From: a virus
Virus record (IMG/VR): IMGVR_UViG_3300045974_000102
Span: 1-64,000 of that record
Length of the DNA stretch: 64,000 bases
Strand: one strand, 5' to 3'
Shown here piece after piece: positions 45,538-64,000 of the stretch; positions within the stretch are counted from its first letter, which is position 1, and every line of letters starts with the position of its first letter. Position numbers and translations under genes: made by a program. Under the pieces are notes generated by a model, which saw nothing but the letters and a program-made list of their open reading frames with translations, was not told the origin of the DNA and made no database searches.

Positions 45538-48500
45538 TTAGGAGTATCTATACATATCTTCTTTATAAGGATTTGAACCATCTTGGCGGGTATGAACTGT
45601 ATTATATCCTCTGGAGGATACAATGTTTCCTATTGTTGACATCGCTTCTCTGCTGTCTGTTAATAAGTTCATGCTCGTATTATAATTTGCTTTGGTCTGT
45701 AAAGTTCTCTGTGAACCCATTTGAGAGCGTGGTGCTTGGAACGCTGGATTGTTTACTGATGGTAAATCATTTGGATCTTCAATAGCTCCATCGTCTGTTG
45801 CTAAATTCCACATAGCTAAGCCTGCTAGTGCTGCAGCACCTGCCCCTATCATTCTTGGTAGTGTGACATGATCCTCAATAAACTTCCAAGCCTTATCAAC
45901 TCCAGCGAATTTCCTTGACGGTGGCACATAAGATCTTCTGAGCGTCTCAGCTACAGTCATTTCAATATTAGCATCTATAAGTTTAGACCTGTGCATGTGA
46001 TCCATTATAATTTTAGGTATATCTTCTTTATTAGTTTTACCAGTTTCAACTCTCTTAGCTAGCGAGTTAAGCATGCCGCCTATACTGTCAGATGTTCCAG
46101 CCCCAGCTCCTTCGTCAATACCCTTAGAGAGCATGTTAAGGAAGCCACCATTGAAACCAAGTGCTTCTGCTTCGTCTTTGCTAAACTGTGATGCTATAGT
46201 TGGTGTATTTTTGATTGCTCTCTGATACTCTGCGAATGCATCTTCTACCTTAGTTGTGGCACCTGAATATCTGTGAGCTACACCATACTCGTCGAAATTA
46301 AGCTCTCTGATATTATATGTTAGGTCAGCTAAGTGATTAGAGGCATTCCACATTTCTGTGCCTCTAACTGCATTTTCTGCCATCCATGATGTTCCACTCT
46401 TTCTTGCTGCTATAGCTGCATGAGCTAAGATGGGGCTCATCTCACCGCCAGAGTTTCTAAGTAGATTTACATAGCCTTCATCTGTAATATTGCCCATAGC
46501 TTTAAGCACATTATCCATAGTAGCCTCGACTCCATTGGGGCCAAGGATAGACTGTATATGCTTTGAACTAATAATGCTCTGCTCCCAGAACTTAGGGACA
46601 AATGTATGAATGAATGTTCTATATTTTGAGAATGTGTCTTCAGCTATTCTGCCATCTACAAGTCCTTCAAGGCCACCTTTCATCTGGAATGTCTGCGCAG
46701 AGAATGCACCTGTTAGGCCTTTAGTAAGCCATGCTGCTATACCAGTATTAACCTCAAGATGGGAGGCAGATTCGAACATTGCCTCAACTTCTTTATCTCC
46801 CATTTTTGCAAATGATTGGAATCTCATATCTGGGAATAGAGTGCCAATTGCACTTCTGTTTCCTGCTGCGTTCATAAAGTTAAAGACAGTCTTCTGGTTA
46901 CCATTAATTTCAGCAAGTCTTTCTGCTTTAGCTTTGCTGCCAAACAGTGTGAGTAATTGTATTTTATCACCGTCATGGTCAGCGTTCATAAGTAGTCTTT
47001 GTGCATGACCTAGTGCTAAGCTCTTGCCTTGTATCGGATTCTTTTGATCCCAGTCTGGGAAGATATTAGCTAGTGCCATACTCTTGGCGTAGATAGCAGG
47101 GTAACGTGTGACCATGCCAGTTAAGCCTTCTTTATCAATTATATTCATTGCCTCTTTGGAATAAAATCCACCACCACCATCTAAAAATTTATTTATATAC
47201 CATTCTAATTCTTTACCTTTAGCAATTTTAGCTTCTGCCATCATACTGCCTACTGTATGTAGTGTATCATTTTGCCAAGCAAATAGACTCTCTCTTGATT
47301 CTATTCCCGCCACATCTAAGTTCTGCTCAAAGAAGTTTCCTTCACCAAACCAGTCTCTAAGAACATCTTTTACTTCTACATTATTGCTTTCAGCTGCAGA
47401 CATTGCTTCAGATAACATTTCATCTATTGAAGCCGCATATGTTTCTTTTGAAACTTTAGTTACATTACCTATTGCGTAATGTAGGTCTTGAGCTTCTTGC
47501 CAATAGGATGCCTTATCTTCTACCATCTTTTCAAGCTTAGTTAATGGTGATGACTTCTCTGATAAGAAGTTTACATCTGGAGTATTCATACTATAATAAG
47601 CCCCAGGGACGTGTAGTGATGCTTCACGTAGGATGCCGCCCTTAGTTGAATGTCCATGAATATCTACAGCATATGCTAAAGCCTCTAGTCCACTTTTGCT
47701 TAATTCTCCTTGTGGTGAGTTAACTACATCATTAAGTAGCTCATGCACTTTCCATGAGAAGTCGCTCAATGCTACCTTATCTTCTTCAGGCATATAGTAG
47801 CCGCCTTTGAAGTAGTCATTGCCTGGTATAAAGACTTGTCTGTCATGTGCCTGTAGTAAGAAGCCGTTTGGATTATTGTTTGAAGATAAGAATGAATCCA
47901 AGAAATGTAGTGGATCCTGAATGTTTCTTCTGGCTTTATCGCCATATCCATAAGGTCCCATTATTTTCTTTAGCTCTTCAACATCAACTAACTTGGCATC
48001 TGTAAACGCAGATACATCTTCACCTGCAATAGACATCTCCATTAGGCGCTGTTGCTCCATAAGCCTTGGTGTGTCTATTATACTTCTTAGAGACAGTTCT
48101 TCCATGACACCAGGAGTGTCTCTTAGATACTGCATATCTCTAAATCCTATACGCATTGTGTTACTGCCTATGCCTTGCGCAAGAGATTCAGTCTCTTGTG
48201 GCGAGAAGCCAGTCGCAAGCCAGAAGTTTGTATCTAGACCCTCTAGCGCATGGTAATCATGCCCAAATTTACGTTCATAATTTAAAAAGCCTCTCTGGCG
48301 CATCTTATTATAGTTACGAGGACCTAGTCTATTTGTGGCATATTCTAGTCCTTCGAAAACTAACCTTTCAGTATTCCTGTGCGCTAGTATCTTAGCCTTT
48401 CCAGTTGTATTAAGCGCATTTAAGTCTTCAACAACTTTTTCTCCCATATAACCTAGGTCATCAAGTGACCCTATTGATGTATCCATTCCAGCATGCCTTT

Positions 48501-50892: not shown

Positions 50893-53800
50893 TTAATATA
50901 AATACTGGAACTGTGATAGTAGAATACCACCATACTTATCGTATCTCTTTCTGACACGATGATCTTCTTCGTCTGTTGTCTCTTCTAAGTGCATCATAGC
51001 ATTAGGTGATGTTACTGGTGCGCCGTGTGATGATTGTATAACGTCATTCTGTGCTATATATGGCAGTATCTCTCCCGTCATGGTAGCACTTGTATTATGG
51101 ATAGAGTTTATGTCAATAGCTGATTGATAAGCTCCTGGGCTATAAACTGCTCTTACTAAGTGGTCATCGAAGAAGCCATAGTCTTCTATTTGTTCGCCCT
51201 GGTCTTTAAGTGCCAACACTTCTACTTTTTCAATGTCAACGTCAGGTGACCAGCCAAGCCAATCAGTCCCTGGAAGAGCATGACTATTAGAATACTGCTG
51301 AATAATCTTTGAGCGTGCCCAGTCGCCTCTTGTAATGCCAGTGCCATCAGTCTCGTGCATATACTGACGAATATCACTATCAGATAGATCGAAGGCTTCG
51401 TTTGCTTGTATCTCTGCAAATTCTTCTCTATCTCTTTCAGAACCTGCCTCTGCTAATCTCTTTGCCCATAGACCCTTATAAAGACGCTTAGATGCTTCTG
51501 GTAAGAACTTAAATATTTTGCCACGCTTCTCTGGACTGCTTTCATTTGCAAAGAAGTCAAAGTATGCTCTTTCGTTCTGTGGCAATGCTGTTAATTCATC
51601 ACGTAAGCTGTTATCTGTTGGATCTGCACCTATCATAGTAGAGCGCCACTTAGCATGGTAGAACTCTGCTTCTTGATAGTCGCCAGCGTCAGAAGATTGG
51701 TTAGCTAGCATCTTATATTTTAGATATTTGATTATATCCCAATACTGCTGCTTCTCTCTTCTTTCTGCTGTAAAGCTTGGTATAGTATCAATACCGAATA
51801 CGCGGTGTCCTATATTTGCTATCATAGGCTTTAATAGATGTTCGATAGGGTGCTGCCAAAGTCTTACTTCTTTACCAAATACTTGATAGTCTAAATAGTT
51901 AGTGAGATAGTCTCTATTAGGGATAAGTTTTCTATCCCAGAAGGTAGACTTATCTGTCATATTTTCCCAGTAGCCAGCGAGAAAAGTATTATAAGAGCCT
52001 ATCTTATCTTGCGCTAAGTTGTGCGAAGCTAGATTACCTGTATCTGCGAAAGGAGATCCTTCGTCCCACATATCTTCTTGCATGCCGCTCACATAAGCCT
52101 CAAGCCCTTTAGACATGTCTGGCATTGACTCTGGAGCAGCAACTTGCATATCTATTCTTTTGCCGGGCGATAGATGAGAAGCCATTGCGCTCATAGAAGA
52201 CTTCTGTATTTCTAAGGCGTCATTTGCTAATTGGCTTGTGTCATCATATCTAAACTTCTGAAGCAGTCTTGCTCTAATGTCCTGCACTCTATTGGATACG
52301 CCAGCCGCTCTATATGTAGTCTCATCTCCTTCAAGGCCAAACTCACCAGTTTCTAGGTCTGCCCAGTCTACTACACCTGAGCGATCTTCTGTCGCTATGC
52401 TCTGAGTATATTCTTGAGAATGTGCAAAGATCTGCTTCTTTAACTCACCAACTTGAGTTAATGTATCATAGTATCTCTGTTCTTCTGCAGGAGAAAGGTT
52501 GTTCCCTATTGCTAGCTGCAAAACGCTAGCTGATGTATTTCTAAATTCTGACGAGTATGGAGCTATCTGCTGTAAGATTTCAAGTCTAACTGGATCTGGA
52601 TACTCTTCTAAGTCCATTCCTTTAACTTCAGGAAACAAGAACTCCCAGCCTTTACGTGATGTCATTAACCAGCCCTGTGGAGCCTTATCAAATGTGGTGC
52701 CATGCGTATAGTCAATGCTTTGTTTGCTTCGCTCTGAGTTCCATATATCTTCTTCTCTTTGAGGTATCCAGTTAACACCAAATAGCTCATTTGGAAGATC
52801 GTTGATTGTCCACTTAGATCTCGGATTAGTAAACACACGACGTAAGAACTCGCCACCTATACCTGTAATATCTCCAGCTCTCCATCCCCACATGATCTGT
52901 GCTGGATCATACATTGCTGAAGCATCTGCTTTTCTTGGGACATAAGAATCAATACCCTTCTTCCCTGCAGCAAACTGATATAGAGAGCGGAACATGAAAC
53001 CTTTGAAACCAGAGTATTCAGTTCCTTGATCCCACATCTTAATCATATTCTGTCCGAATAGATTATCAGATCTCTTCATAGCCTCATAGAGCTGCGGTGT
53101 AGAGTCTATAGCAGAGTTGTTATGTTGAATATCTACAGCTAGCCTTAAGTTCTTAGCTACTGCTCTTTCATAGTATTGGTCGGCCTTATCATCTGGGATG
53201 CCTCCACCACCAAAGAAGTTAGGCTTTATGCCACGAGAGTCTAACTCATCAAATACTCTCTGCATTTCCGCAGATGGGTCATTGAAGTAGTTATCGGACC
53301 TTACGCGCAAGAAAGACCAGCCCTCTTGTTCAAGTTCCCTTTGTCTCTTAGCATCCTTAATCTTCTTCTTGCCACTATGGAAAGATACACCGTCAGCTTC
53401 AAGGGCAGCATATTTACTGCCATCTCTAATAACCATATCTATATAATAATTACCTTCATTTATCTGCGGGTAAACATCATAGCCCTGAGCCTTAAGTGAT
53501 TGATAAATCCCTCTTTCAAAAGGATTGCCTAATTCGCCTTCGCCTGGCTTATGGTATTCTTTCTGAGGTTTGATTACTCTACCTATTGTTGCAGCGATGA
53601 GTGGCCCGAGCAAAGGTATGTTCTGTCCATATTGGGATGATTTATATACCGGTTGTGATTCAGCGTGGTAGTCCTCTAGCATGTATCTATCGAATAGGCC
53701 GAACGTAAATGAGTTGAGTAGTCTATGTCCATAGCTCGGATAGATAACTCCCTTGTTTTGCCAGTCAGACTGTATAAGATTTAATGCCTCTCTTCTGTAT

Positions 53801-56800
53801 TGGATTACTTTGCCACCCTGATATGGCGTTGGCGATAAAATCCATCCTCTATTTTTTCTTACTTCAATATCTCTATTGCCATTAATAATAGCCTTACGTT
53901 CTTCATAAGTTTTATTAGAGCCTAAGAAGCCAGGTAGAAATGGGATCATAGGGGCCATTAAGAGGCCAAATGCTGCAGTCTTTGGGTTTTGTATTAGCCA
54001 ATTGAATGCTCTTTGAGAGCCAGTCTTAGTAACAGCGCCTACAAACTTCTCTGGCCTTAGAGCTTGTCTAAGCCATGGAGCAACTTGTATATTAGATTTA
54101 AGTAGATCTCTACCTACTTTATCAAAAGATCTTCTAATATAAGATGGGCCTGTCTTATATAAGTGTTGAGCAAATAAAACTGTAGTAGCTGCACTAATAG
54201 CTGGAGCTAAAACACCTAGACCTGTAGATCCTGGAGCAGCTTGCTCTTGACGCTTTGCCATCCTCGTTAAGCCAAGAATATCTGATATCTTAGAATATGC
54301 TAGCTGAGCTTTGTGATAAGCAGCTATAGGAAGCCCTGTAAGCGGTCCTGAGCCTTTATCAAACGTTAAGGCACCTAACATATGGTTTGCTAAATCAAAT
54401 GCCTTGTAGGCCGCATATGCTGGCAGAATACGCTTAATGCCAATGTCCATGAAGTAGCGAGGAATGCCACCCTTCATATCATATACAGGTAGGCCTAAGT
54501 GTGGCGCATTGATAAATTCAAGAGCACGACCAGCCATAGTGTAGATTGGGTTATGAGACTTAGTGAGCTTGTCTATTGTCTTGCCCATGAATTTGTTGTC
54601 AACAAATAGAACCTCGAATGGAGTTTCAAGGAACTGGTTCATAGGGTTAATAGTTATTTCTCTAAAAGCCTTGCCCCAGTGGCGAGCCATTTGATGGATG
54701 CCTTCTTTGCTCCATCTCTTTGCGCCACGGTAGCTCTGAACAAGAAGTGCTGTGTCTGCATCTCTTGTCATTTTGCCCATGTTCTTATAGAGTAAGTTAG
54801 TGCCGCCACCAATGCCTTTAGGTAGCATGTCAAGGTGCCATTTAACTGTCTCAATTGCTTTCCATATAGGTTGGAAAGTTGGGTTGCGTTTCATGAAGTC
54901 AGATTTTCTTGCTGTCTTTAAATACTCATCTAGTGGTATCTTATAGGATGCTCCTGATCTGACCAAAGATTCTTGAACTCTACCAAATACAATTGGGTTA
55001 ACTTGTCTAGTAAACTCTCCAGTTGCTCTATTAAAACTATTAACATTCTTGGCGCTAGCTGTTCTTAATTTAGATATATTAAGGTTTACATCAAGGACAA
55101 ACTTGCGTCCCATTCTATCACCATTAAGACTTTGATTTATAGCGTTAGATGCTTCGTCAAATTCTTGATACCATATTACTGCTGCACCATTAGGTTGTGT
55201 GCTTATCTTAATTATGTTCTTCTTAACCTTATCTGGTATTCTAGTAGGCTTAAGTATTTCAGATATTTCATCAAAGACTTCTGGGTTAGTATCTTGTATA
55301 GAGGCTAGTAGGTCATCAACAGCAATGCCATGATCATGTAAGCCTCTGATCCTCCCGCCGTTGATAGTAGAAAATCTTTTCCATTTACCACTAAGTTGTC
55401 CAGTTGCTTCATCAACATCACCTATAAATCTCTGTGACCCTCTACCCATATATTCGTGCATAGATGAAACGCGAAAGAGTCTGAATGTTGGCACAGCAGC
55501 TTCTATTTTTCTTGCGCCATAAAGCATAGTGCGGCCAAGCATTGTCATTGCTTCGCCAAGATTTGTTGGTATAACTTTAGACTTATGTGCCCCAAGTAAG
55601 TTTGGGTCATGTAACATTGCCGAGAAACCTACTGACCATAATGATAAGCCTGCTGTGAAGCCAAGTGCGCCAAGTCTGCCTACCATAGTAAGTGCACTAG
55701 CGCCGTCTGCTTCATTACCAGATGAATAAGTTTTATATTCATTAGATATACCAGTCTTGTTAAAGCTCATACTACTGCTTGAAAGCTTTTGTTTCTTATC
55801 TCCACCACCAAAATAAGTAGCTGCACCAAGTAATGCAAAGACACCAGCTAAGCTTGAATATTGAGCTATCTTAGTTGCAGCTCTATTGTGCTCCATGAAG
55901 TTCATGGCGTTGTGAAAAAATCCACCGCCTCCACCTCCTGCACCTCCACCTCCACCAAACATGGAAGGTGTAAAGCCACCTGACTTAGATGCATATATAG
56001 AAGAGAACCCTTTCTTTATACTGCTTGTTCTTTTGTCTATTAGACCTAGCATTTGTTGAGTAAGCTCTGAGACACTATAGCCTTGCTTCTGAGTTTCACG
56101 CTCCATAACATTTTGGAAAGCCTGATGTAAGAACTGGCCACCAATATCAGATCGTAATACCTTATCTATACCATGTTTTAATTCGTCTCCATGATTGCCT
56201 TTTGTGAGCGAGTTCTTAAACTCATCCATAACATCACCAAAGGCAGCTTTTAGTGCAACCTCAAGGCGTGTATCAGCACCAGCTACGTGTAATTCTTTTC
56301 CATTAAAAAATGGCTTAACTTTACTATGCCAGGAGAATAGATTTGCTACATCTTCAACCTTCCAAAATATAGCGTGTTGGAATTCTTCAAAAGTATTAGG
56401 CGCTCGCGCTATTCTGCCTGCAGTCTCTTTAAAGGCGATTGGGTTAATATTAATTGTTAACCGCTCCATGATATTTCTATCTTCTTTAGCAAGTCTGAAA
56501 GCTAATAGTTGCCAATCATGTTCAGCACCTATAAAATTAATTTTCCCTGCTTCATATAAACCTTTAAATCTTTCATAAGCTTTTTTATCTCGCTTAGCAA
56601 GCTGAACAAGCATTGCTGGAATATCGAAGTCTGTATTCCAGGTCATTATATTTTTAACCTTGCCAGCGGTAGCATCATTCATTAGATTATCTAAAACATT
56701 AAACAAGCCTTGCTTCTCTGCTTTATTATAAAAAGCTTCTTGTGTCATAGATTTCATTTCAATGTTGCCGTTCAATCCTTCAAGAAGGGCTTGAACCTGG

Positions 56801-57348
56801 GCATCTGTTTGATTAAATATACCAAGTGACATGTCTGATATATTTAAGTATTTATCACCTACAGGTATTACGTTGTTAGTTATTAGGGCTCTGTTAATCT
56901 CTCTGGGACCAAGCACTTCCATAGCATAGTGCACTTGTCTATCACTTAACCCCTTCCCTGCTATATCCTTTTTAGTTAGATAATTATAAAGGCCTTCATG
57001 TGTTTGCGTCTGTATTCTTGACTTTTTAACATTAGTGCGTTGGCCGCGTATCATCTTGAATTCTTCTACGTGGCCTTGACTGTGGACATTTAGATCTCTT
57101 ATTGAGTGAGGATTGGTTACTTGGATATGATGGATAGTGTCGCTTAAACCTGGTTCCATATAAGCCATTTGCAATAGCTCCATATGTCCATGTGAAAGCA
57201 AAATTTCATCTGCTGATGGCAATGCCCTTCTACCATCTTGCATCTTCGATAAATTATAGAAGAAGAAATTTAAATGATTAGTTTCGATATCTATAAACAT
57301 CGAGATGTCTTTTAGATATTTAGTGTAATCATTATTAGAAGCTGCCAT
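50893..57348 (-). CDS. Tape-measure-position giant protein with N-terminal DEDDh-like exonuclease and internal Vsr/DUF559-like endonuclease
   Basis: Follows two chaperones; motifs FIDIET, WNTDFD and HVAGAD; internal PFERGIYQSL...YYIDMVI...ALEADGVSFH...DAKRQRELEQEGWSFLRV; several TM-like segments. Confidence 0.7.
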   Translation of the reverse strand: MAASNNDYTKYLKDISMFIDIETNHLNFFFYNLSKMQDGRRALPSADEILLSHGHMELLQMAYMEPGLSDTIHHIQVTNPHSIRDLNVHSQGHVEEFKMIRGQRTNVKKSRIQTQTHEGLYNYLTKKDIAGKGLSDRQVHYAMEVLGPREINRALITNNVIPVGDKYLNISDMSLGIFNQTDAQVQALLEGLNGNIEMKSMTQEAFYNKAEKQGLFNVLDNLMNDATAGKVKNIMTWNTDFDIPAMLVQLAKRDKKAYERFKGLYEAGKINFIGAEHDWQLLAFRLAKEDRNIMERLTININPIAFKETAGRIARAPNTFEEFQHAIFWKVEDVANLFSWHSKVKPFFNGKELHVAGADTRLEVALKAAFGDVMDEFKNSLTKGNHGDELKHGIDKVLRSDIGGQFLHQAFQNVMERETQKQGYSVSELTQQMLGLIDKRTSSIKKGFSSIYASKSGGFTPSMFGGGGGAGGGGGGFFHNAMNFMEHNRAATKIAQYSSLAGVFALLGAATYFGGGDKKQKLSSSSMSFNKTGISNEYKTYSSGNEADGASALTMVGRLGALGFTAGLSLWSVGFSAMLHDPNLLGAHKSKVIPTNLGEAMTMLGRTMLYGARKIEAAVPTFRLFRVSSMHEYMGRGSQRFIGDVDEATGQLSGKWKRFSTINGGRIRGLHDHGIAVDDLLASIQDTNPEVFDEISEILKPTRIPDKVKKNIIKISTQPNGAAVIWYQEFDEASNAINQSLNGDRMGRKFVLDVNLNISKLRTASAKNVNSFNRATGEFTRQVNPIVFGRVQESLVRSGASYKIPLDEYLKTARKSDFMKRNPTFQPIWKAIETVKWHLDMLPKGIGGGTNLLYKNMGKMTRDADTALLVQSYRGAKRWSKEGIHQMARHWGKAFREITINPMNQFLETPFEVLFVDNKFMGKTIDKLTKSHNPIYTMAGRALEFINAPHLGLPVYDMKGGIPRYFMDIGIKRILPAYAAYKAFDLANHMLGALTFDKGSGPLTGLPIAAYHKAQLAYSKISDILGLTRMAKRQEQAAPGSTGLGVLAPAISAATTVLFAQHLYKTGPSYIRRSFDKVGRDLLKSNIQVAPWLRQALRPEKFVGAVTKTGSQRAFNWLIQNPKTAAFGLLMAPMIPFLPGFLGSNKTYEERKAIINGNRDIEVRKNRGWILSPTPYQGGKVIQYRREALNLIQSDWQNKGVIYPSYGHRLLNSFTFGLFDRYMLEDYHAESQPVYKSSQYGQNIPLLGPLIAATIGRVIKPQKEYHKPGEGELGNPFERGIYQSLKAQGYDVYPQINEGNYYIDMVIRDGSKYAALEADGVSFHSGKKKIKDAKRQRELEQEGWSFLRVRSDNYFNDPSAEMQRVFDELDSRGIKPNFFGGGGIPDDKADQYYERAVAKNLRLAVDIQHNNSAIDSTPQLYEAMKRSDNLFGQNMIKMWDQGTEYSGFKGFMFRSLYQFAAGKKGIDSYVPRKADASAMYDPAQIMWGWRAGDITGIGGEFLRRVFTNPRSKWTINDLPNELFGVNWIPQREEDIWNSERSKQSIDYTHGTTFDKAPQGWLMTSRKGWEFLFPEVKGMDLEEYPDPVRLEILQQIAPYSSEFRNTSASVLQLAIGNNLSPAEEQRYYDTLTQVGELKKQIFAHSQEYTQSIATEDRSGVVDWADLETGEFGLEGDETTYRAAGVSNRVQDIRARLLQKFRYDDTSQLANDALEIQKSSMSAMASHLSPGKRIDMQVAAPESMPDMSKGLEAYVSGMQEDMWDEGSPFADTGNLASHNLAQDKIGSYNTFLAGYWENMTDKSTFWDRKLIPNRDYLTNYLDYQVFGKEVRLWQHPIEHLLKPMIANIGHRVFGIDTIPSFTAERREKQQYWDIIKYLKYKMLANQSSDAGDYQEAEFYHAKWRSTMIGADPTDNSLRDELTALPQNERAYFDFFANESSPEKRGKIFKFLPEASKRLYKGLWAKRLAEAGSERDREEFAEIQANEAFDLSDSDIRQYMHETDGTGITRGDWARSKIIQQYSNSHALPGTDWLGWSPDVDIEKVEVLALKDQGEQIEDYGFFDDHLVRAVYSPGAYQSAIDINSIHNTSATMTGEILPYIAQNDVIQSSHGAPVTSPNAMMHLEETTDEEDHRVRKRYDKYGGILLSQFQYLY

Positions 57349-57910
57349 CTACAAACTCCCCATTTGGTCCCATATCGTTAAAGTAATTTGCAACAGCTTT
57401 AAGTTCCTCAGGCGTTACTGACTTAATACCCTTTTTAGGCTTAGAGCCACCTTTCTCTGCAGAGAAACTCTCACGCATCTTATTGGTATCTATGGCTGGT
57501 TTGCCTAATACAGCCTCACTAAAAGCAAGCTCTTCCATAAGTTCATTAAGTGTCATCTGTTTTAAGTCTTTAAGTGTATATGTAGGCTGTGCTTGTATGA
57601 TAGCTCTGTAGAACATAAAATATAAGCTGTTTTCTACATTTGCACGTGCCTTCTCAATTAGCACTGGCACATCAGTAAGCTTCATTATGAAGCCCGATAG
57701 TTTCATTGCGCAGCCTACTACTGCAAGGATAGCACCTGCTTCCAGCTCTTTAGCATTATATTTATGGTCTGTTATTTCGTTAAAGATAAATTCTTCAGTA
57801 TTAGGATTTTCTTTAAGTAGAGCAGCACTGAACCTATCTGCTTCGTCAGCAGTTAGTGTTCTGAATATAATGTCTGTAGAGTCTGCCAGAGGAAGTTTAT
57901 ACTTCTTCAT
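57335..57910 (-). CDS. Tail assembly chaperone candidate
   Basis: IIFRTLT...YTLKDLKQMTLNELMEEL; immediately upstream of the tape-measure-position gene. Confidence 0.6.
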   Translation of the reverse strand: MKKYKLPLADSTDIIFRTLTADEADRFSAALLKENPNTEEFIFNEITDHKYNAKELEAGAILAVVGCAMKLSGFIMKLTDVPVLIEKARANVENSLYFMFYRAIIQAQPTYTLKDLKQMTLNELMEELAFSEAVLGKPAIDTNKMRESFSAEKGGSKPKKGIKSVTPEELKAVANYFNDMGPNGEFVDGSF

Positions 57911-57921
57911 GAAAGCTCCAA

Positions 57922-58329
57922 TTATGTTTCTAAGATTAGTTCAAGAGCCTTGTTAGGATCTTTAAGGAAGTTGCTTACTGCTAGGATTTGATAGACCAGT
58001 GTGAGGACTAGTCCTGCTTCTAAGGACTGTATGAGCACAGCTTCTGGCTTTGGATGGATTAGTGAAGCTTTAAGGATAGCTTCATGTGTAGACATCTTAT
58101 CTAGGTTTGCTCTCCTGATATCAGCGAACTCTGCCCATGGTAGATATTTATACATAAAGAATTGTAGTTGATCTGCCGGACCTAAGAATGTGCAGTAGAC
58201 ACGCTTATTAAAAGCCTTAGCTCTTTCAAACTCAGGCTTGGTCATTTTGTAATAAGCAATTTTGTCCCAGTTAATTTCATCGTAAAGTGATTGTTTAACA
58301 TCTTTTACTTCTTCTAGCTCTTCACTCAT
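57922..58329 (-). CDS. Tail assembly chaperone candidate
   Basis: FMYKYLPWAEF...ILKASLIHP...LEAGLVLTLVYQILAVSNF; position between tube genes and the tape-measure-position gene; shares LEAG with the next gene. Confidence 0.6.
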   Translation of the reverse strand: MSEELEEVKDVKQSLYDEINWDKIAYYKMTKPEFERAKAFNKRVYCTFLGPADQLQFFMYKYLPWAEFADIRRANLDKMSTHEAILKASLIHPKPEAVLIQSLEAGLVLTLVYQILAVSNFLKDPNKALELILET

Positions 58330-59929: not shown

Positions 59930-61261
59930 TTATCTCCTAACGTCCTGCTTAACACTGTTCATAACTTCTGTAGCAGTTAACTCTTTGTTGAAGCTAGGCG
60001 TGCCACTGAATGTTCCATTAACAAAGCTTTCTGTAATGCTATTAAGTGATGAGATAGATACAAATTTTTCATTGCCATTATATCTAACCATTGGAAGTAT
60101 ATCTGATGCGACATAAGATACTTTGTTTGTAATGTTAGGCATTGCCATACCTTGATACTGGTTCTCATCTATTATCTGCACATTCTTAAGCATAAACTTG
60201 CTGAAGATACCACGCTCATTGCAACCCATAACTAATATATGGAATGGTGCTAAGGAGTCTAATAGTTGCACTTCATACATGCCTTGTATTTTCCTAAAAA
60301 TATCTGAGCGCTGGTAAGCATCAGATTCATATGCAAATCGTTCACGCTTTCTTGTCCAGTCTTGTGAAGAGGATTGTGTTTGCGGTTGGAAGTTATCAAA
60401 CTTAGAGCTTATAGTCTCTAGCTCTCTTGTTATTCTTGAGCGAAGTCTTCCAAGAATATCCTCAGTAAAAATAGCAAACGCAATTGATCCGGCAATTGTT
60501 CTAAGGCCTGATGTATATTTAACTGGGTTAGACTGCCCAAGCTGCCTTACTGGATATCTTTCTCTTATGGTCGAGTAGGAGATTGACATAACATTATCCA
60601 TCTCAAACATAATAAGCTCTTTTTGCTGAGCTGCTTCTGGAACATCATTCATAAGGTCTGCTATAGATGGGACCTCTGATATGTAGAAACATACTAGGTC
60701 AGCACCGCCTATTGTATTCTGTAGTATACTATTGTTATCTGCGTTGCCTGATTTCCAGACTTCTTTATAAGGATTTACTACATCACCTGTAAAGGTCTGT
60801 TTGGTGTATTTAGAACTGCCATCCGAAGCATTAGATACTTTTAGAGATGCTGTTTGTGGTGGGTATGATGCTGTGGTTTTAGCTAAATCCAAAAGATAGT
60901 TAGCTGAAGCATTTTGTTCTAATTGTGTTTTTGTTGTGCCTATAGGTGTCTGAGAAGTCATTATACCATCTGGCCCAACAACAAGAGTTCCTATATTCTT
61001 TATCTCTCTTTCATCTCTGGCGCACAACAAAGCACTTACTATTGTATTATTAAACTCATAAGTGTTAAGGGCAGATTTAGGATTTTCTTGTCTATAATCA
61101 TTCGTAGCCTTGGCTACAATTTCTTTGGCACCGTCTGGATACTGTTGGTCAACAAGCACAGAAGGCACAGTAACCTTCATGTCAGGATTTACAGCGCTAG
61201 TAACAACTAGAGCATCCTGTCCAAGGATGTCAAATGTGATATTGCTAGAATTTATTCCCAT
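59930..61261 (-). CDS. Tail-tube-fold baseplate/tube initiator protein
   Basis: GGADL, ISYSTIRERYPVRQLG...GLRTIAGSIAF and DSLAPFHILVMGCNERG match the tube protein. Confidence 0.7.
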   Translation of the reverse strand: MGINSSNITFDILGQDALVVTSAVNPDMKVTVPSVLVDQQYPDGAKEIVAKATNDYRQENPKSALNTYEFNNTIVSALLCARDEREIKNIGTLVVGPDGIMTSQTPIGTTKTQLEQNASANYLLDLAKTTASYPPQTASLKVSNASDGSSKYTKQTFTGDVVNPYKEVWKSGNADNNSILQNTIGGADLVCFYISEVPSIADLMNDVPEAAQQKELIMFEMDNVMSISYSTIRERYPVRQLGQSNPVKYTSGLRTIAGSIAFAIFTEDILGRLRSRITRELETISSKFDNFQPQTQSSSQDWTRKRERFAYESDAYQRSDIFRKIQGMYEVQLLDSLAPFHILVMGCNERGIFSKFMLKNVQIIDENQYQGMAMPNITNKVSYVASDILPMVRYNGNEKFVSISSLNSITESFVNGTFSGTPSFNKELTATEVMNSVKQDVRR

Positions 61262-61348: not shown

Positions 61349-61993
61349 TTATTGATCTAGGCGTCTCATTGGAGACATCGAGTTGGCAATGAAAGTATAT
61401 TTCTTTTCAATATTAAGTTCATCAATAGAGATAGCAACACCTTCATTAATAACTGTGCATCCAAAGATACGGAACGCCATCTTGTCGCCCTGTTCGTTTA
61501 CACCAACAACAGTGATATTGAACGGTGGGATTTGGTCAGCATAGAATGGGTCTACTTCTGTCCAAAGATCTGACTTAGCAAGAGCTCCTCCTGCTGGCAC
61601 GTTAACTGTTGCACCGGCAGAAGTAGTAGCAGGATTCAGTGCAAGATTTTTGTCTGAATAGCCCTTTGCTTGTAGATCAGACTCATCTTGTCTAATCCAC
61701 ACTTTAGGTGCAGATGAGCTCTGGCTAAAGATTTTGCTTACATAAGAAATAAGCGCATCATAGCCAAGTTGCGCAAGGATGAAAGAACCACCGATGCCAC
61801 GCTTTCCTTTAGGGATTGCGATTGGGCTTTTACGTCCCATGACGTAAAGTGGACCTGATTCTCTATTTACTCCAACTGTAAACGACATGCATTCGCCAAC
61901 GTATTCGTCGCCAAAAATTACAACCGTATCAGCTCCAGAGAAAACAGAGGCAAGGCCTGTCTTGTTTGAGTTGAACATATCACCAGTACTCAT
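61349..61993 (-). CDS. Major tail tube protein
   Basis: 214 aa directly after the sheath; FSGAD, RESGPLYVMG...KGKRGIGGS, ADQIPPFNITV; strong GGAGG RBS and its own terminator. Confidence 0.8.
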   Translation of the reverse strand: MSTGDMFNSNKTGLASVFSGADTVVIFGDEYVGECMSFTVGVNRESGPLYVMGRKSPIAIPKGKRGIGGSFILAQLGYDALISYVSKIFSQSSSAPKVWIRQDESDLQAKGYSDKNLALNPATTSAGATVNVPAGGALAKSDLWTEVDPFYADQIPPFNITVVGVNEQGDKMAFRIFGCTVINEGVAISIDELNIEKKYTFIANSMSPMRRLDQ

Positions 61994-62049: not shown

Positions 62050-64000
62050 TTAGGCCCCAGCGGTCACATTTCTGTCGATTACAGCCTCAATGTCTACTTG
62101 TGTCAATTCTTCCGGTGGGTTAAGCGATGTTTTTAGGAAGAACTTACCAATAGCTTTTTGAGATTCGATAATCTGCAGATCGAATGTGTAGCCGTTTAGA
62201 AGGCCTTTATTTACATCAAGGCCGAAGCTTTCAGCTAGTTTTGTTTTAGCAGCTTCGTAGTAGTATCTGTTAACAGCCTTACCAATGAAGCCAGCGAGAA
62301 GAGCGCGTTTGCCCTCGATTACAGTCTTGATAATTCTTGTAGTAGAGATTAGGTAGTAAGCTGACTGATCTCTTGCTACAGAGTTACCATTGTTAATTAC
62401 CCAGCCAAGACCGTGCTCACGAGTAACTACAATGTAGCCCTTAGCTGCTAGGTCCGAATACCACTTGCGATTGACAATAACGCTAACAGTAACATTAGAA
62501 TTAACACCAATCTTGCTGAATGAGATACCTTCATTCTTAGGCTTGCCAGCTAGCATACCAAGAGCATAAATACCACATGCATCAATGTATGATTTACCAG
62601 AAGCTCTATTAGTGAAGGTAAGTAGACCAGCACCAACAAGAAGGAATTTGCCAAGGTCTACAGTATTATTGTAGGTATCATAGATGACATCGCCATCAAT
62701 GAAGCCTTGGTCAGTCATTAGAAGTCCCCATGCAGGATCAGAGTAAGAGCCATTTATTGGATCACTCATACCACAGCGGTTGAATGCTGTAGAGCCAGAC
62801 AGTGAAGGTTCACCAAGTAATCCTGTTCCATCGCTTGCAAGAGATAGAATTGTATTGTCAAGTCCTGCCACATACACAGGTGTAGGAGCTTTACCAATCC
62901 AGTTTACAATGCCTGATCTTGTGAACCCAGCTGCTGTAACTGTGTCGATATCTGCATTCATGCCACAAAGTGGAGTGTTATAACCAATTGTTGCTTGATT
63001 GCAGAAGTTAGCGAACATATAGCCAAAGTGTGCAAGATAGTATCCTGGCAGTTTGACATCAGACCATGCACTGAATTCAATATGGTCACCCATATCATAT
63101 TCTTTGATGTATCCAAGGCCAAGTTGGAATGGCTGTGTGCCGGTAAATGTAGTCGAGACAGTTGTCCCGATGAAAGCACCACCAATAACTTTAGTAGCCA
63201 CTACAGCGGCACCAGAAGTAAATGGTGCACCAGATGCCATGTAGTATGAGAATGGCACGCCTACTGAACTATTTAGCGGACTAACAATATTAACTACATT
63301 GCCAGTTGCATCAACTGCTTTATACTTGATGGTATAGCCAGAGACTGATAGATAGCCTTCTGCCTTGATATCCGCCTGTGTAAAGCCGCCAGATGCAGTA
63401 AGTGTAAGCTGAGTAATACCAGAGGCACTGATAGGAGTTGTGAATACTGGCTTCTTAACGGTAAGTTGATAATCAGCAACTTGGTATACAGTCTTAGAAG
63501 TATAAGAGTGCACGTCGTTACCAGCAGTTGTCATTATAGAGACTGTGCCTGCAGCGGGCCAATCATCAGCAGCGTCTACGTTAAGTATAGAGGCTGATGT
63601 GGTATCACTTACAAGTGTAGTTGCTCTTGTGGTATTGCCAGTATAGCTATATGTTTCGTTATAAGCGACACCAGCCGGAATGATATAGTCAGGTGTATAT
63701 TGTTCAAGATCTGCTAGAGCATTACGGAAATACTTGTAATAGGCTCTATAGTCTGCCGATGATGGTGTTGAGCCGACTGCACATTCACTATCAGAAGCAG
63801 TTACAGATAGACCGAATGCGCTCTGTGAGTATGCTGTTAGTGTTGTTAGTGTTGTTGCAAGTGGATCACTATCAAGATCTATACCGGTGATTGTGCCAGT
63901 GCCAGCTAGTGTTGCAGTTACAGTGAAGTAACCACCATCTATACCTCTTAGTGAGTCGTAAACTTTCTGCTTGTTCTTATCCCAGATTTTAACGCCTCTG
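62050..64000 (-). CDS. Tail sheath protein (5' end beyond window)
   Basis: C-terminal YYLISTTRII...FIGK...LNPPEELTQVDI is a sheath-like end. The frame has no stop codon from 63534 to the window edge. Confidence 0.85.
   Translation of the reverse strand, partial: RGVKIWDKNKQKVYDSLRGIDGGYFTVTATLAGTGTITGIDLDSDPLATTLTTLTAYSQSAFGLSVTASDSECAVGSTPSSADYRAYYKYFRNALADLEQYTPDYIIPAGVAYNETYSYTGNTTRATTLVSDTTSASILNVDAADDWPAAGTVSIMTTAGNDVHSYTSKTVYQVADYQLTVKKPVFTTPISASGITQLTLTASGGFTQADIKAEGYLSVSGYTIKYKAVDATGNVVNIVSPLNSSVGVPFSYYMASGAPFTSGAAVVATKVIGGAFIGTTVSTTFTGTQPFQLGLGYIKEYDMGDHIEFSAWSDVKLPGYYLAHFGYMFANFCNQATIGYNTPLCGMNADIDTVTAAGFTRSGIVNWIGKAPTPVYVAGLDNTILSLASDGTGLLGEPSLSGSTAFNRCGMSDPINGSYSDPAWGLLMTDQGFIDGDVIYDTYNNTVDLGKFLLVGAGLLTFTNRASGKSYIDACGIYALGMLAGKPKNEGISFSKIGVNSNVTVSVIVNRKWYSDLAAKGYIVVTREHGLGWVINNGNSVARDQSAYYLISTTRIIKTVIEGKRALLAGFIGKAVNRYYYEAAKTKLAESFGLDVNKGLLNGYTFDLQIIESQKAIGKFFLKTSLNPPEELTQVDIEAVIDRNVTAGA

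Follow-up and report, generated by a model that had tools for sequence, protein, structure and literature searches.

A predicted Vsr-like endonuclease domain inserted once into a giant, putative tail-module protein of an uncultured phage

The DNA examined here, hereafter the window, is a stretch of 64,000 nucleotides (positions 1 to 64,000) of the IMG/VR virus record IMGVR_UViG_3300045974_000102, a contig of 115,882 bp that is estimated to be ~56% complete. One of its genes encodes P0001, a giant protein related to gp145 of Bacillus phage 0305phi8-36, and in the middle of P0001 lies a predicted Vsr-like endonuclease domain that only one known relative shares. We find that the domain is an insertion in a hypervariable linker, that a single gain is the simplest history for it, and that its active-site residues are conserved. 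In our view the domain is probably, if by no means certainly, a nuclease module that has been retained in a polyvalent tail-module protein, itself likely to be injected, of an uncultured jumbo myophage resembling 0305phi8-36. A sequence-only reading of the window had anticipated much of this, placing at ~53240-53530 a compact unit of ~95 amino acids (aa) of Vsr-like/MTES_1575 identity, set mid-protein between the glycine linkers PGEGELG and FFGGGG, with intact catalytic residues, without intein splice motifs at its borders, and from a family often fused to helicases. These proposals are borne out by the comparisons below; its two suggestions as to how the insert came to be there fare less well, and its description of the host protein as tape-measure-like stands in part.

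The domain was identified by profile and structure comparisons. P0001 matches PF18741 (REase_MTES_1575; REase, restriction endonuclease) over profile positions 1 to 96 of 96, with an E value of 3e-22 and 78.9 bits against a curated gathering cut-off of 38.2 bits, which is far beyond chance. PF04480 (DUF559) matches the same domain more weakly (E 4e-4, 20.6 bits), and the Vsr mismatch endonuclease family proper (PF03852) is not among the P0001 Pfam matches at E <= 1. When the entire 115.9-kb record is scanned in six frames, PF18741 appears at this one place only (E 2.9e-25, 85.1 bits). A fold predicted from the single sequence was unusable (predicted local distance difference test score, pLDDT, of 50); the model used is that from AlphaFold2 with a 45-sequence family alignment, in which the domain has a pLDDT of 88, a predicted template modelling score (pTM) of 0.80, and the topology alpha-beta-beta-beta-alpha-beta-alpha. 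The top Foldseek match of this model is the catalytic domain of the homing endonuclease I-Bth0305I (3R3P), and VIA-align gives Z scores of 12.7 to 3R3P (root mean square deviation of 2.1 Å over 95 residues), 11.9 to the DUF559 protein 3HRL, 10.4 and 9.8 to Escherichia coli Vsr (1CW0 and 1VSR, respectively), and 9 to 10 to the RNA-acting RAP/FASTKD domains. Judged on profile and model together, the domain is predicted to be a complete member of the Vsr-like, EDxHD-type PD-(D/E)xK nucleases, within the MTES_1575 family.

To place the domain in its host protein, P0001 residues 1030-1700 were searched against 5.8 billion protein clusters, which returned 41 homologs of 1183-2275 aa, nearly all of them 1940-2090 aa long and 36-61% identical over the best local match. 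PF18741 is present in just two of these 42 proteins, P0001 itself and P0002 (2114 aa). The linker that separates two conserved host blocks is 180 and 178 aa long in the two carriers versus 53-85 aa (median, 65.5) in the 40 others, corresponding to a net insertion of ~115 aa, and the surrounding linker is hypervariable in the alignment. These alignments strongly support the view that the nuclease domain is a true insertion in a hypervariable linker. On the upstream side, insertion-free homologs also show PGE/GEG in the regional alignment; on the downstream side, a tail of ~50 aa is common only to P0001 and P0002, and a phmmer search with aa 1370-1445 among 199 collected proteins gives P0002 as the sole convincing match (1.2e-11), with a weak one to P0132 at 1.5e-3. 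Searches for the domain by tblastn in 16 related DNA loci, and by hidden Markov model (HMM) in five records of related viruses, of which two are 98-100% complete, yielded no copy, and a JGI metagenome scan yielded no close relatives of the insertion region.

A tree of the conserved parts with the insert excluded, made by a quick search, joins P0001 and P0002 as sisters (SH-aLRT, the Shimodaira-Hasegawa-like approximate likelihood ratio test, 96) at a distance of ~0.6 substitutions per site. Because the carriers form one clade, the simplest account is that the ancestor they share gained the domain once. The G+C content of the insert (0.42-0.44) shows no compositional anomaly relative to its flanks (~0.41), and the search for flanking repeats or target-site duplications found 10-11-nt chance matches only; both observations fit an old event. 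Lineage-specific insertions also occur at other sites of the family, after ~residue 654-668 in P0034 and, as an intein, at residues 1497/1498 (P0001 numbering) in P0042. We rejected the suggestion that the site holds swappable nuclease cargo, as all 40 insertion-free homologs are without any other domain there.

The conservation of the domain bears directly on whether it is likely to be functional. The active site of I-Bth0305I (E170, D196, N208, H213, and D222) corresponds to Vsr residues E25, D51, H64, H69, and D97, and an extra conserved acidic residue has also been named in that enzyme (PMC3239194). The corresponding residues of P0001, E1278, D1304, E1317, D1319, H1324, and D1332, are all present, and P0002 has equivalents of each. 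Both carriers retain every one of the 13 invariant columns of the 45-member family alignment; of the 37 columns conserved at 80% or more, P0001 retains 30 and P0002 retains 26. The active site is thus apparently catalytically intact as far as alignment can tell, with the metal- and base-forming residues kept and two conserved arginines lost. Between P0001 and P0002 the domain is 59% identical, close to the 64-65% of the conserved flanking cores, and unlike the tail after the domain (36.5%) or the N-terminal 460 residues (39%). The domain therefore appears to be conserved like the essential parts of the protein rather than like its surrounding linker, and this protein-level conservation suggests that it is kept under purifying selection.

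The origin of the domain was sought among its closest relatives. An exhaustive HMMER scan covering 1.84 billion representatives produced 5,831 matches, of which P0002 alone falls below 1e-30. The next-best matches are ~45% identical and lie mostly at residue ~1350-1500 of 1400-1900-aa proteins, and those members that were scanned have an AAA_11/AAA_12 superfamily 1 (SF1) helicase core followed by MTES_1575, so that the nearest relatives are SF1 helicase-nucleases. Such proteins match the PADLOC models PDC-S37 and Hhe, and Mokosh components over the helicase part. The isolated domain also matches PDC-S37 (2.3e-18) and Hhe (5.3e-10), the alignable part of each model being the nuclease only (PDC-S37 positions 1232-1339 of 1550, and Hhe positions 1683-1776 of 1911). 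There is no Pfam match to AAA_11 or AAA_12 in P0001 and none to AAA_12 in the 116 kb of the genome that is available. Relatives of the domain are encoded by 30 IMG/VR contigs, mostly in open reading frames (ORFs) of 1540-1810 aa with the domain near residue 1400, along with a few small ORFs; none is a tail protein. Two kinds of these relatives are head proteins of the Mu-F-like type that carry a DUF559/Vsr-type nuclease within an intein (L042; L044/L046), and these intein-borne copies score about equally on the MTES_1575 and DUF559 models, whereas the phage copy described here does not (78.9 versus 20.6 bits). A tblastn search of 50,697 GenBank phage records with the domain gave no match at E <= 1e-3. 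Because the nearest relatives are helicase-fused and the phage copy scores far higher on MTES_1575 than on DUF559, these comparisons suggest that the most likely donor was a helicase-nuclease of the sort recognised by candidate defence models, and not a homing endonuclease.

Two features of these relatives are of interest in their own right. In the virus contigs with intein-borne copies (L042:4333-6570, L044:4150-6339, and L046), the Mu-F-like head-morphogenesis proteins are broken by inteins with a DUF559/Vsr-like (EDxHD-type) endonuclease. In another (L029:1840-6651, with an ORF of the same size in L032 to L035), a 1604-aa SF1 helicase plus MTES_1575 protein has a C-terminal GreA/GreB C-terminal domain (PF01272, E 1.2e-9), a hint of possible docking of the helicase-nuclease on RNA polymerase.

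The nature of the host protein is indicated by homology and gene order. Among GenBank phages, tblastn finds distant P0001 relatives only, namely ME3_35 of Acinetobacter phage ME3, gp145, and their counterparts in related Bacillus jumbo phages. ME3_35 is annotated as a "virion structural protein," and the GenBank note for gp145 records its identification in virions by mass spectrometry; BLASTP E values of P0001 are 2e-16 to ME3 gp35 and 2e-12 to gp145. In ME3 and 0305phi8-36, sheath and tube genes are followed by two tail chaperonin genes, the gp145-type gene, a second giant gene, and the baseplate hub. The minus strand of the window has a similar order: sheath, tube, a tube paralog, a 521-aa gene, two small genes in the chaperonin position, P0001, a 1781-aa gene, and a hub homolog of 2741 aa. 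On this basis we take P0001 to be a gp145-type virion protein of the 0305phi8-36-like jumbo myophages, an assignment made by homology and synteny. Its gene follows the two chaperonin-position genes, as tape measure genes do, and it had been called tape-measure-like; this is true by position only, because the homology is to gp145, and a comparative study of 0305phi8-36 gave the tape-measure role to orf146 (gp146), the gene after gp145, on tail-length grounds. There is no match in PHROGs for P0001 or for five of the six neighbours searched, none in Pfam for eight neighbouring proteins, and none for a whole-protein profile of P0001 against PDB sequences; gp145, ME3 gp35, P0015, P0024, P0034, and P0045 are likewise without any Pfam domain.

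Two further observations concern this region. The chaperonin-position genes (57335-58329, minus strand; 135 and 191 aa) are separate and nonoverlapping, matching the two-gene, frameshift-free chaperonin arrangement described for 0305phi8-36. P0001 also has a 12-residue Gly/Ala run (aa ~465-476; 55918-55956, minus strand) and, in addition to the two hydrophobic segments listed in Table 1, a third at aa 561-579, found with the same 19-residue Kyte-Doolittle window (mean >1.4). The Gly/Ala run and the three helix-length hydrophobic segments are compatible with membrane insertion after ejection.

P0001 and its neighbour contain other motifs suggestive of enzymatic functions. At the N-terminus of P0001, the DEDDh exonuclease motifs D20-x-E22, N238-x3-D242, and H354-x4-D359 show no variation across seven homologs and are conserved at 90% or more in 42, and an insertion of ~215 residues sets Exo II apart from Exo I; the domain is not recognised by Pfam (with seven N-termini), by a PDB profile search, or in the ESM Atlas. 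A feature search of the ESM Atlas places the core of P0001 (aa 1440-1720; 52189-53031, minus strand) near a viral cluster in which 66% of members have LPD38 (PF18857), with a score of 0.96. An HMM search for LPD38 gave nothing at E <= 1 in the record or in five related records, a weak test, as control genomes were silent too. In the adjacent 1781-aa protein, a sequence of the form RYP...(37 residues)...NADHDGD spans aa ~1260-1306 (46966-47106, minus strand), with NADHDGD at residue 1300, and is kept as RYP...N(A/S/G)DxDGD in four homologs (L005, L006, L007, and L009); as a sequence pattern it resembles the Mg-binding catalytic loop of two-barrel RNA polymerases. The term polyvalent proteins denotes very large proteins that unite several enzymes, have their genes among those of the virion, and are predicted to enter the host with the injected DNA (Iyer, Burroughs, Anand, de Souza, and Aravind 2017, PMC5512222); LPD38 is a domain reported in phage polyvalent proteins only. 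Taken together, and with the DEDDh assignment at the motif level, the features of P0001 and its neighbour would fit this published concept.

Table 1. Features of P0001 and its surroundings (window coordinates; residue numbers are those of P0001)
Feature	Position	Residues	Strand	Basis or remark
P0001, host ORF	50893-57348	2151 aa	minus	single ORF without internal stops; gp145-type tail-module virion protein by homology
MTES_1575/Vsr-like (EDxHD-type PD-(D/E)xK) nuclease domain	53242-53520	1277-1369	minus	PF18741 and fold
Folded unit of nuclease domain	53227-53526	about 1275-1374	minus	predicted structure
Active-site span	53353-53517		minus	columns without variation, or with at least 98% conservation, among 45 family members
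Active-site residue	53515-53517	E1278	minus	equivalent to I-Bth0305I E170
Active-site residue	53437-53439	D1304	minus	equivalent to I-Bth0305I D196
Extra acidic residue	53398-53400	E1317	minus	equivalent to I-Bth0305I E206
Active-site residue	53392-53394	D1319	minus	equivalent to I-Bth0305I N208
Active-site residue	53377-53379	H1324	minus	equivalent to I-Bth0305I H213
Active-site residue	53353-53355	D1332	minus	equivalent to I-Bth0305I D222
Upstream Gly/Glu linker, PGEGELG	53527-53547	1268-1274	minus	partly host-derived
Downstream Gly linker, FFGGGG, and ~50-aa tail	53059-53226	1378-1383 (FFGGGG)	minus	part of the insertion or lineage-specific linker
Conserved host block upstream, ending ...IGRVIKPQKEYH	53551-53916	1145-1266	minus	kept in 42 homologs, gp145, and ME3 gp35
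Conserved host block downstream, ...GFKGF at residue 1447	52249-53028	1441-1700	minus	contains AGDITxxGGEFLRR
N-terminal DEDDh exonuclease motifs D20/E22, N238/D242, H354/D359	56263-57300	17-362	minus	motif level
Hydrophobic membrane-helix-like segments	53917-54228	1041-1061, 1124-1144	minus	Kyte-Doolittle, 19-residue window, mean >1.4
Sheath homolog	62050-63534		minus	synteny
Tube	61349-61993		minus	synteny
Tube paralog	59930-61261		minus	synteny
1781-aa gene 3' of P0001	45538-50883		minus	slot of gp146, assigned tape measure gene in 0305phi8-36

Any explanation for the insert has to accommodate what is established, namely the identity and predicted fold of the domain, the conservation of its residues, its sporadic distribution, its single gain, and the family of its donor. 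One possibility is a selfish, homing-type insertion, in which the domain would be what is left of a homing endonuclease gene of the Vsr-like (EDxHD) kind, or of an intein that has degenerated, fused in frame and persisting because it once drove its own spread. The top structural match is, after all, a homing endonuclease of 0305phi8-36, Vsr/DUF559-type nucleases do occur in inteins of phage Mu-F-like proteins (L042, L044), and the distribution is sporadic (2/42), although it is restricted to a clade rather than patchy. The P0001 family can also host inteins, as the distant homolog P0042 (2504 aa) shows. Its LAGLIDADG intein, at residues 1356-1800, starts with Cys, ends with His-Asn followed by Ser, and interrupts the near-invariant motif AGDITxxGGEFLRR (P0001 aa 1492-1504; ~52837-52875, minus strand), ~120 residues downstream of the nuclease insert; a conserved motif of this kind is the expected homing target. 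The nuclease insert is instead in a hypervariable site, whereas homing elements target conserved sequence. It lacks the expected companions and junctions as well: no Hint, intein, NUMOD, or helix-turn-helix (HTH) family is found in P0001 by Pfam at E <= 1; the domain starts just eight residues after the conserved host block, too few to accommodate N-terminal splicing blocks; and the junctions are unfit for an intein, with Gly/Asn on the N-terminal side, where Cys, Ser, or Thr would be expected, and GGGGIP on the C-terminal side, where the expectation is His-Asn followed by Cys, Ser, or Thr. With no Hint or Intein_splicing match and the wrong junction residues, we rejected the intein reading of the nuclease insert. 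Moreover, the sequence places the domain in the MTES_1575 subfamily associated with helicases (it is ~45% identical to helicase-fused forms versus 18-22% to I-Bth0305I), and its G+C content is that of its flanks. We regard a homing-type origin, which was one of the two suggestions of the sequence-only reading, as highly improbable; the hypervariable site, the lack of an intein or DNA-binding module, and the helicase-fused closest relatives all speak against it. Separately, the placement of the P0042 intein suggests that AGDITxxGGEFLRR is a functionally critical, and possibly a catalytic, site of the conserved core.

The domain could otherwise be a noncatalytic passenger or binding module, either a fold tolerated in a floppy linker or one that binds nucleic acid without cutting it, for example to hold the leading genome end in the tail. 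Its location in the most variable linker of the protein, the forty relatives that function without it, the replacement of two family-conserved arginines and of the cysteine in the ExD motif in both carriers, and the lack of an evident partner DNA-binding domain are as such a module might predict. A neutral passenger should have decayed, however, and this domain is as conserved as the core and far more so than the neighbouring linker, with all of the acidic and histidine active-site residues and 13 invariant positions kept despite ~0.6 substitutions per site; we therefore think this explanation unlikely. Alternatively, an active nuclease might work in the producing cell and not after ejection, in late degradation of host DNA or in processing of phage DNA before tail assembly. 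The catalytic residues are intact, and a gene in a late structural operon should make the protein abundant late in infection. Nonetheless, a nuclease without evident specificity would endanger the phage during replication and packaging, the domain lies mid-chain in a protein encoded beside tail chaperonins, and the genes that phages dedicate to host-DNA degradation are usually early and free-standing, so a role confined to the producing cell seems very unlikely.

The reading that we favour, a nuclease module retained in a probably injected tail-module protein, would run as follows. The common ancestor of the P0001 phage and one known relative would have taken up the domain once, probably by illegitimate recombination from a helicase-nuclease gene matching candidate defence models, and the insert would have come to lie in a gp145-type virion protein, within the surface-tolerant, hypervariable linker that joins two of its conserved blocks. 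During tail assembly the giant protein may take its place beside the hub and tape-measure proteins, to be ejected into the host along with the DNA. Once inside, the endonuclease would nick or cut host nucleic acid, probably DNA, and its cuts may supply ends for the DEDDh 3'-5' exonuclease at the N-terminus of the same protein. RNA is a possible substrate too, because the RAP/FASTKD relatives act on RNA and the helicases that usually accompany the domain are of the Upf1 type. A bolder version, which we offer as a speculation and think rather doubtful, is that the lineage recruited the nuclease module of an Hhe/PDC-S37-like helicase-nuclease, used by bacteria against phages, and fitted it to a tail-delivered protein in which a 3'-5' exonuclease was present beforehand, creating an injected nick-then-resect machine directed at host or competitor nucleic acid on entry and acting beside a co-delivered RNA-polymerase-like protein. 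If this were true, a defence weapon would have been turned to offence and delivered through the tail.

Several points weigh against the reading we favour. That the protein of this phage is located in the virion, is ejected, and is catalytically active, and what its substrate is, we infer from sequence, and the tail-lumen location of gp145-type proteins is itself unproven, because the tape measure of 0305phi8-36 was assigned to gp146 instead. In both phage copies, three positions with at least 91% conservation in the helicase-fused family are changed (R1302Y, C1318A, and R1341Q/A), which could mean altered or weakened substrate binding, and P0001 has no recognisable DNA-binding or helicase partner in cis. 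Finally, 40 relatives manage without the domain, and it is therefore dispensable for the core role of the protein.

Comparison with known systems helps to define what is unusual here. The closest are the PF18741 helicase-nucleases (Upf1/DNA2-like SF1 proteins, including Hhe and PDC-S37), with which the domain shares a full HMM match, ~45% identity, the invariant residues, and the predicted topology; they carry the nuclease near the C-terminus with a helicase in cis, whereas the phage copy is mid-chain, helicase-free, and different at R1302Y, C1318A, and R1341Q. I-Bth0305I, the prototype EDxHD homing endonuclease, encoded in a group I intron in recA of 0305phi8-36, has the same fold, the E/D/H/D active site, and the same broad phage lineage, but the domain in P0001 is 18-22% identical to it and comes without a NUMOD or HTH domain, intron, intein, or evidence of homing. 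The fold is likewise shared with E. coli Vsr and the DUF559 protein 3HRL, with equivalents of Vsr E25, D51, H69, and D97, although the zinc site and intercalating tryptophans of Vsr were not identified in the phage domain and there is no Dcm mismatch-repair context.

Tape measure proteins of T5, TP901-1, and mycobacteriophages carry muralytic or peptidase domains. P0001 is like such enzyme-bearing tape measure or tail-internal proteins in its size, its place in the tail module, its hydrophobic segments, and its embedded enzyme domain, but theirs act on peptidoglycan, whereas the predicted domains of P0001 would act on nucleic acid, and P0001 is gp145-type by homology. To our knowledge, nucleic acid enzymes have rarely been described in tail-internal or tape-measure-region proteins of phages, and those parts of the literature on tape measure proteins with nuclease domains and on MTES_1575 that were available to us do not contain this architecture. 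With the polyvalent proteins (PMC5512222), P0001 shares its giant size, its late-gene and virion-gene context, and a combination of unrelated predicted enzymatic domains, in this case a Vsr-like endonuclease and DEDDh motifs, and the RNA-polymerase-like protein encoded beside it recalls the virion RNA polymerase polyvalent proteins of the N4 type; it differs in belonging to a tail module between chaperonins and hub and in not being MuF- or portal-linked. Vsr, REase, and DEDD are not mentioned in the text of that paper, and the sole tie of P0001 to one of its domains is the LPD38 feature-search lead, which HMM searches did not confirm. An enzyme domain added to a probably virion-delivered polyvalent protein is of a known kind; what is unusual is that the domain is an MTES_1575 nuclease and that the gene belongs to the tail module.

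These observations provide a clean natural comparison, with 40 relatives without the domain, two with it, a single gain, and a conserved active site, and the pattern suggests that a phage is able to equip with an endonuclease a protein that probably accompanies the DNA into the cell. As a compact, helicase-free domain of 100 residues, the domain would also be a simple system in which to find the targets of MTES_1575 nucleases. If the domain is active after ejection, then the idea of polyvalent injected proteins would extend to the tail module of jumbo myophages, and P0001 would be an example of nuclease modules moving between candidate-defence helicase-nucleases and phage virion proteins.

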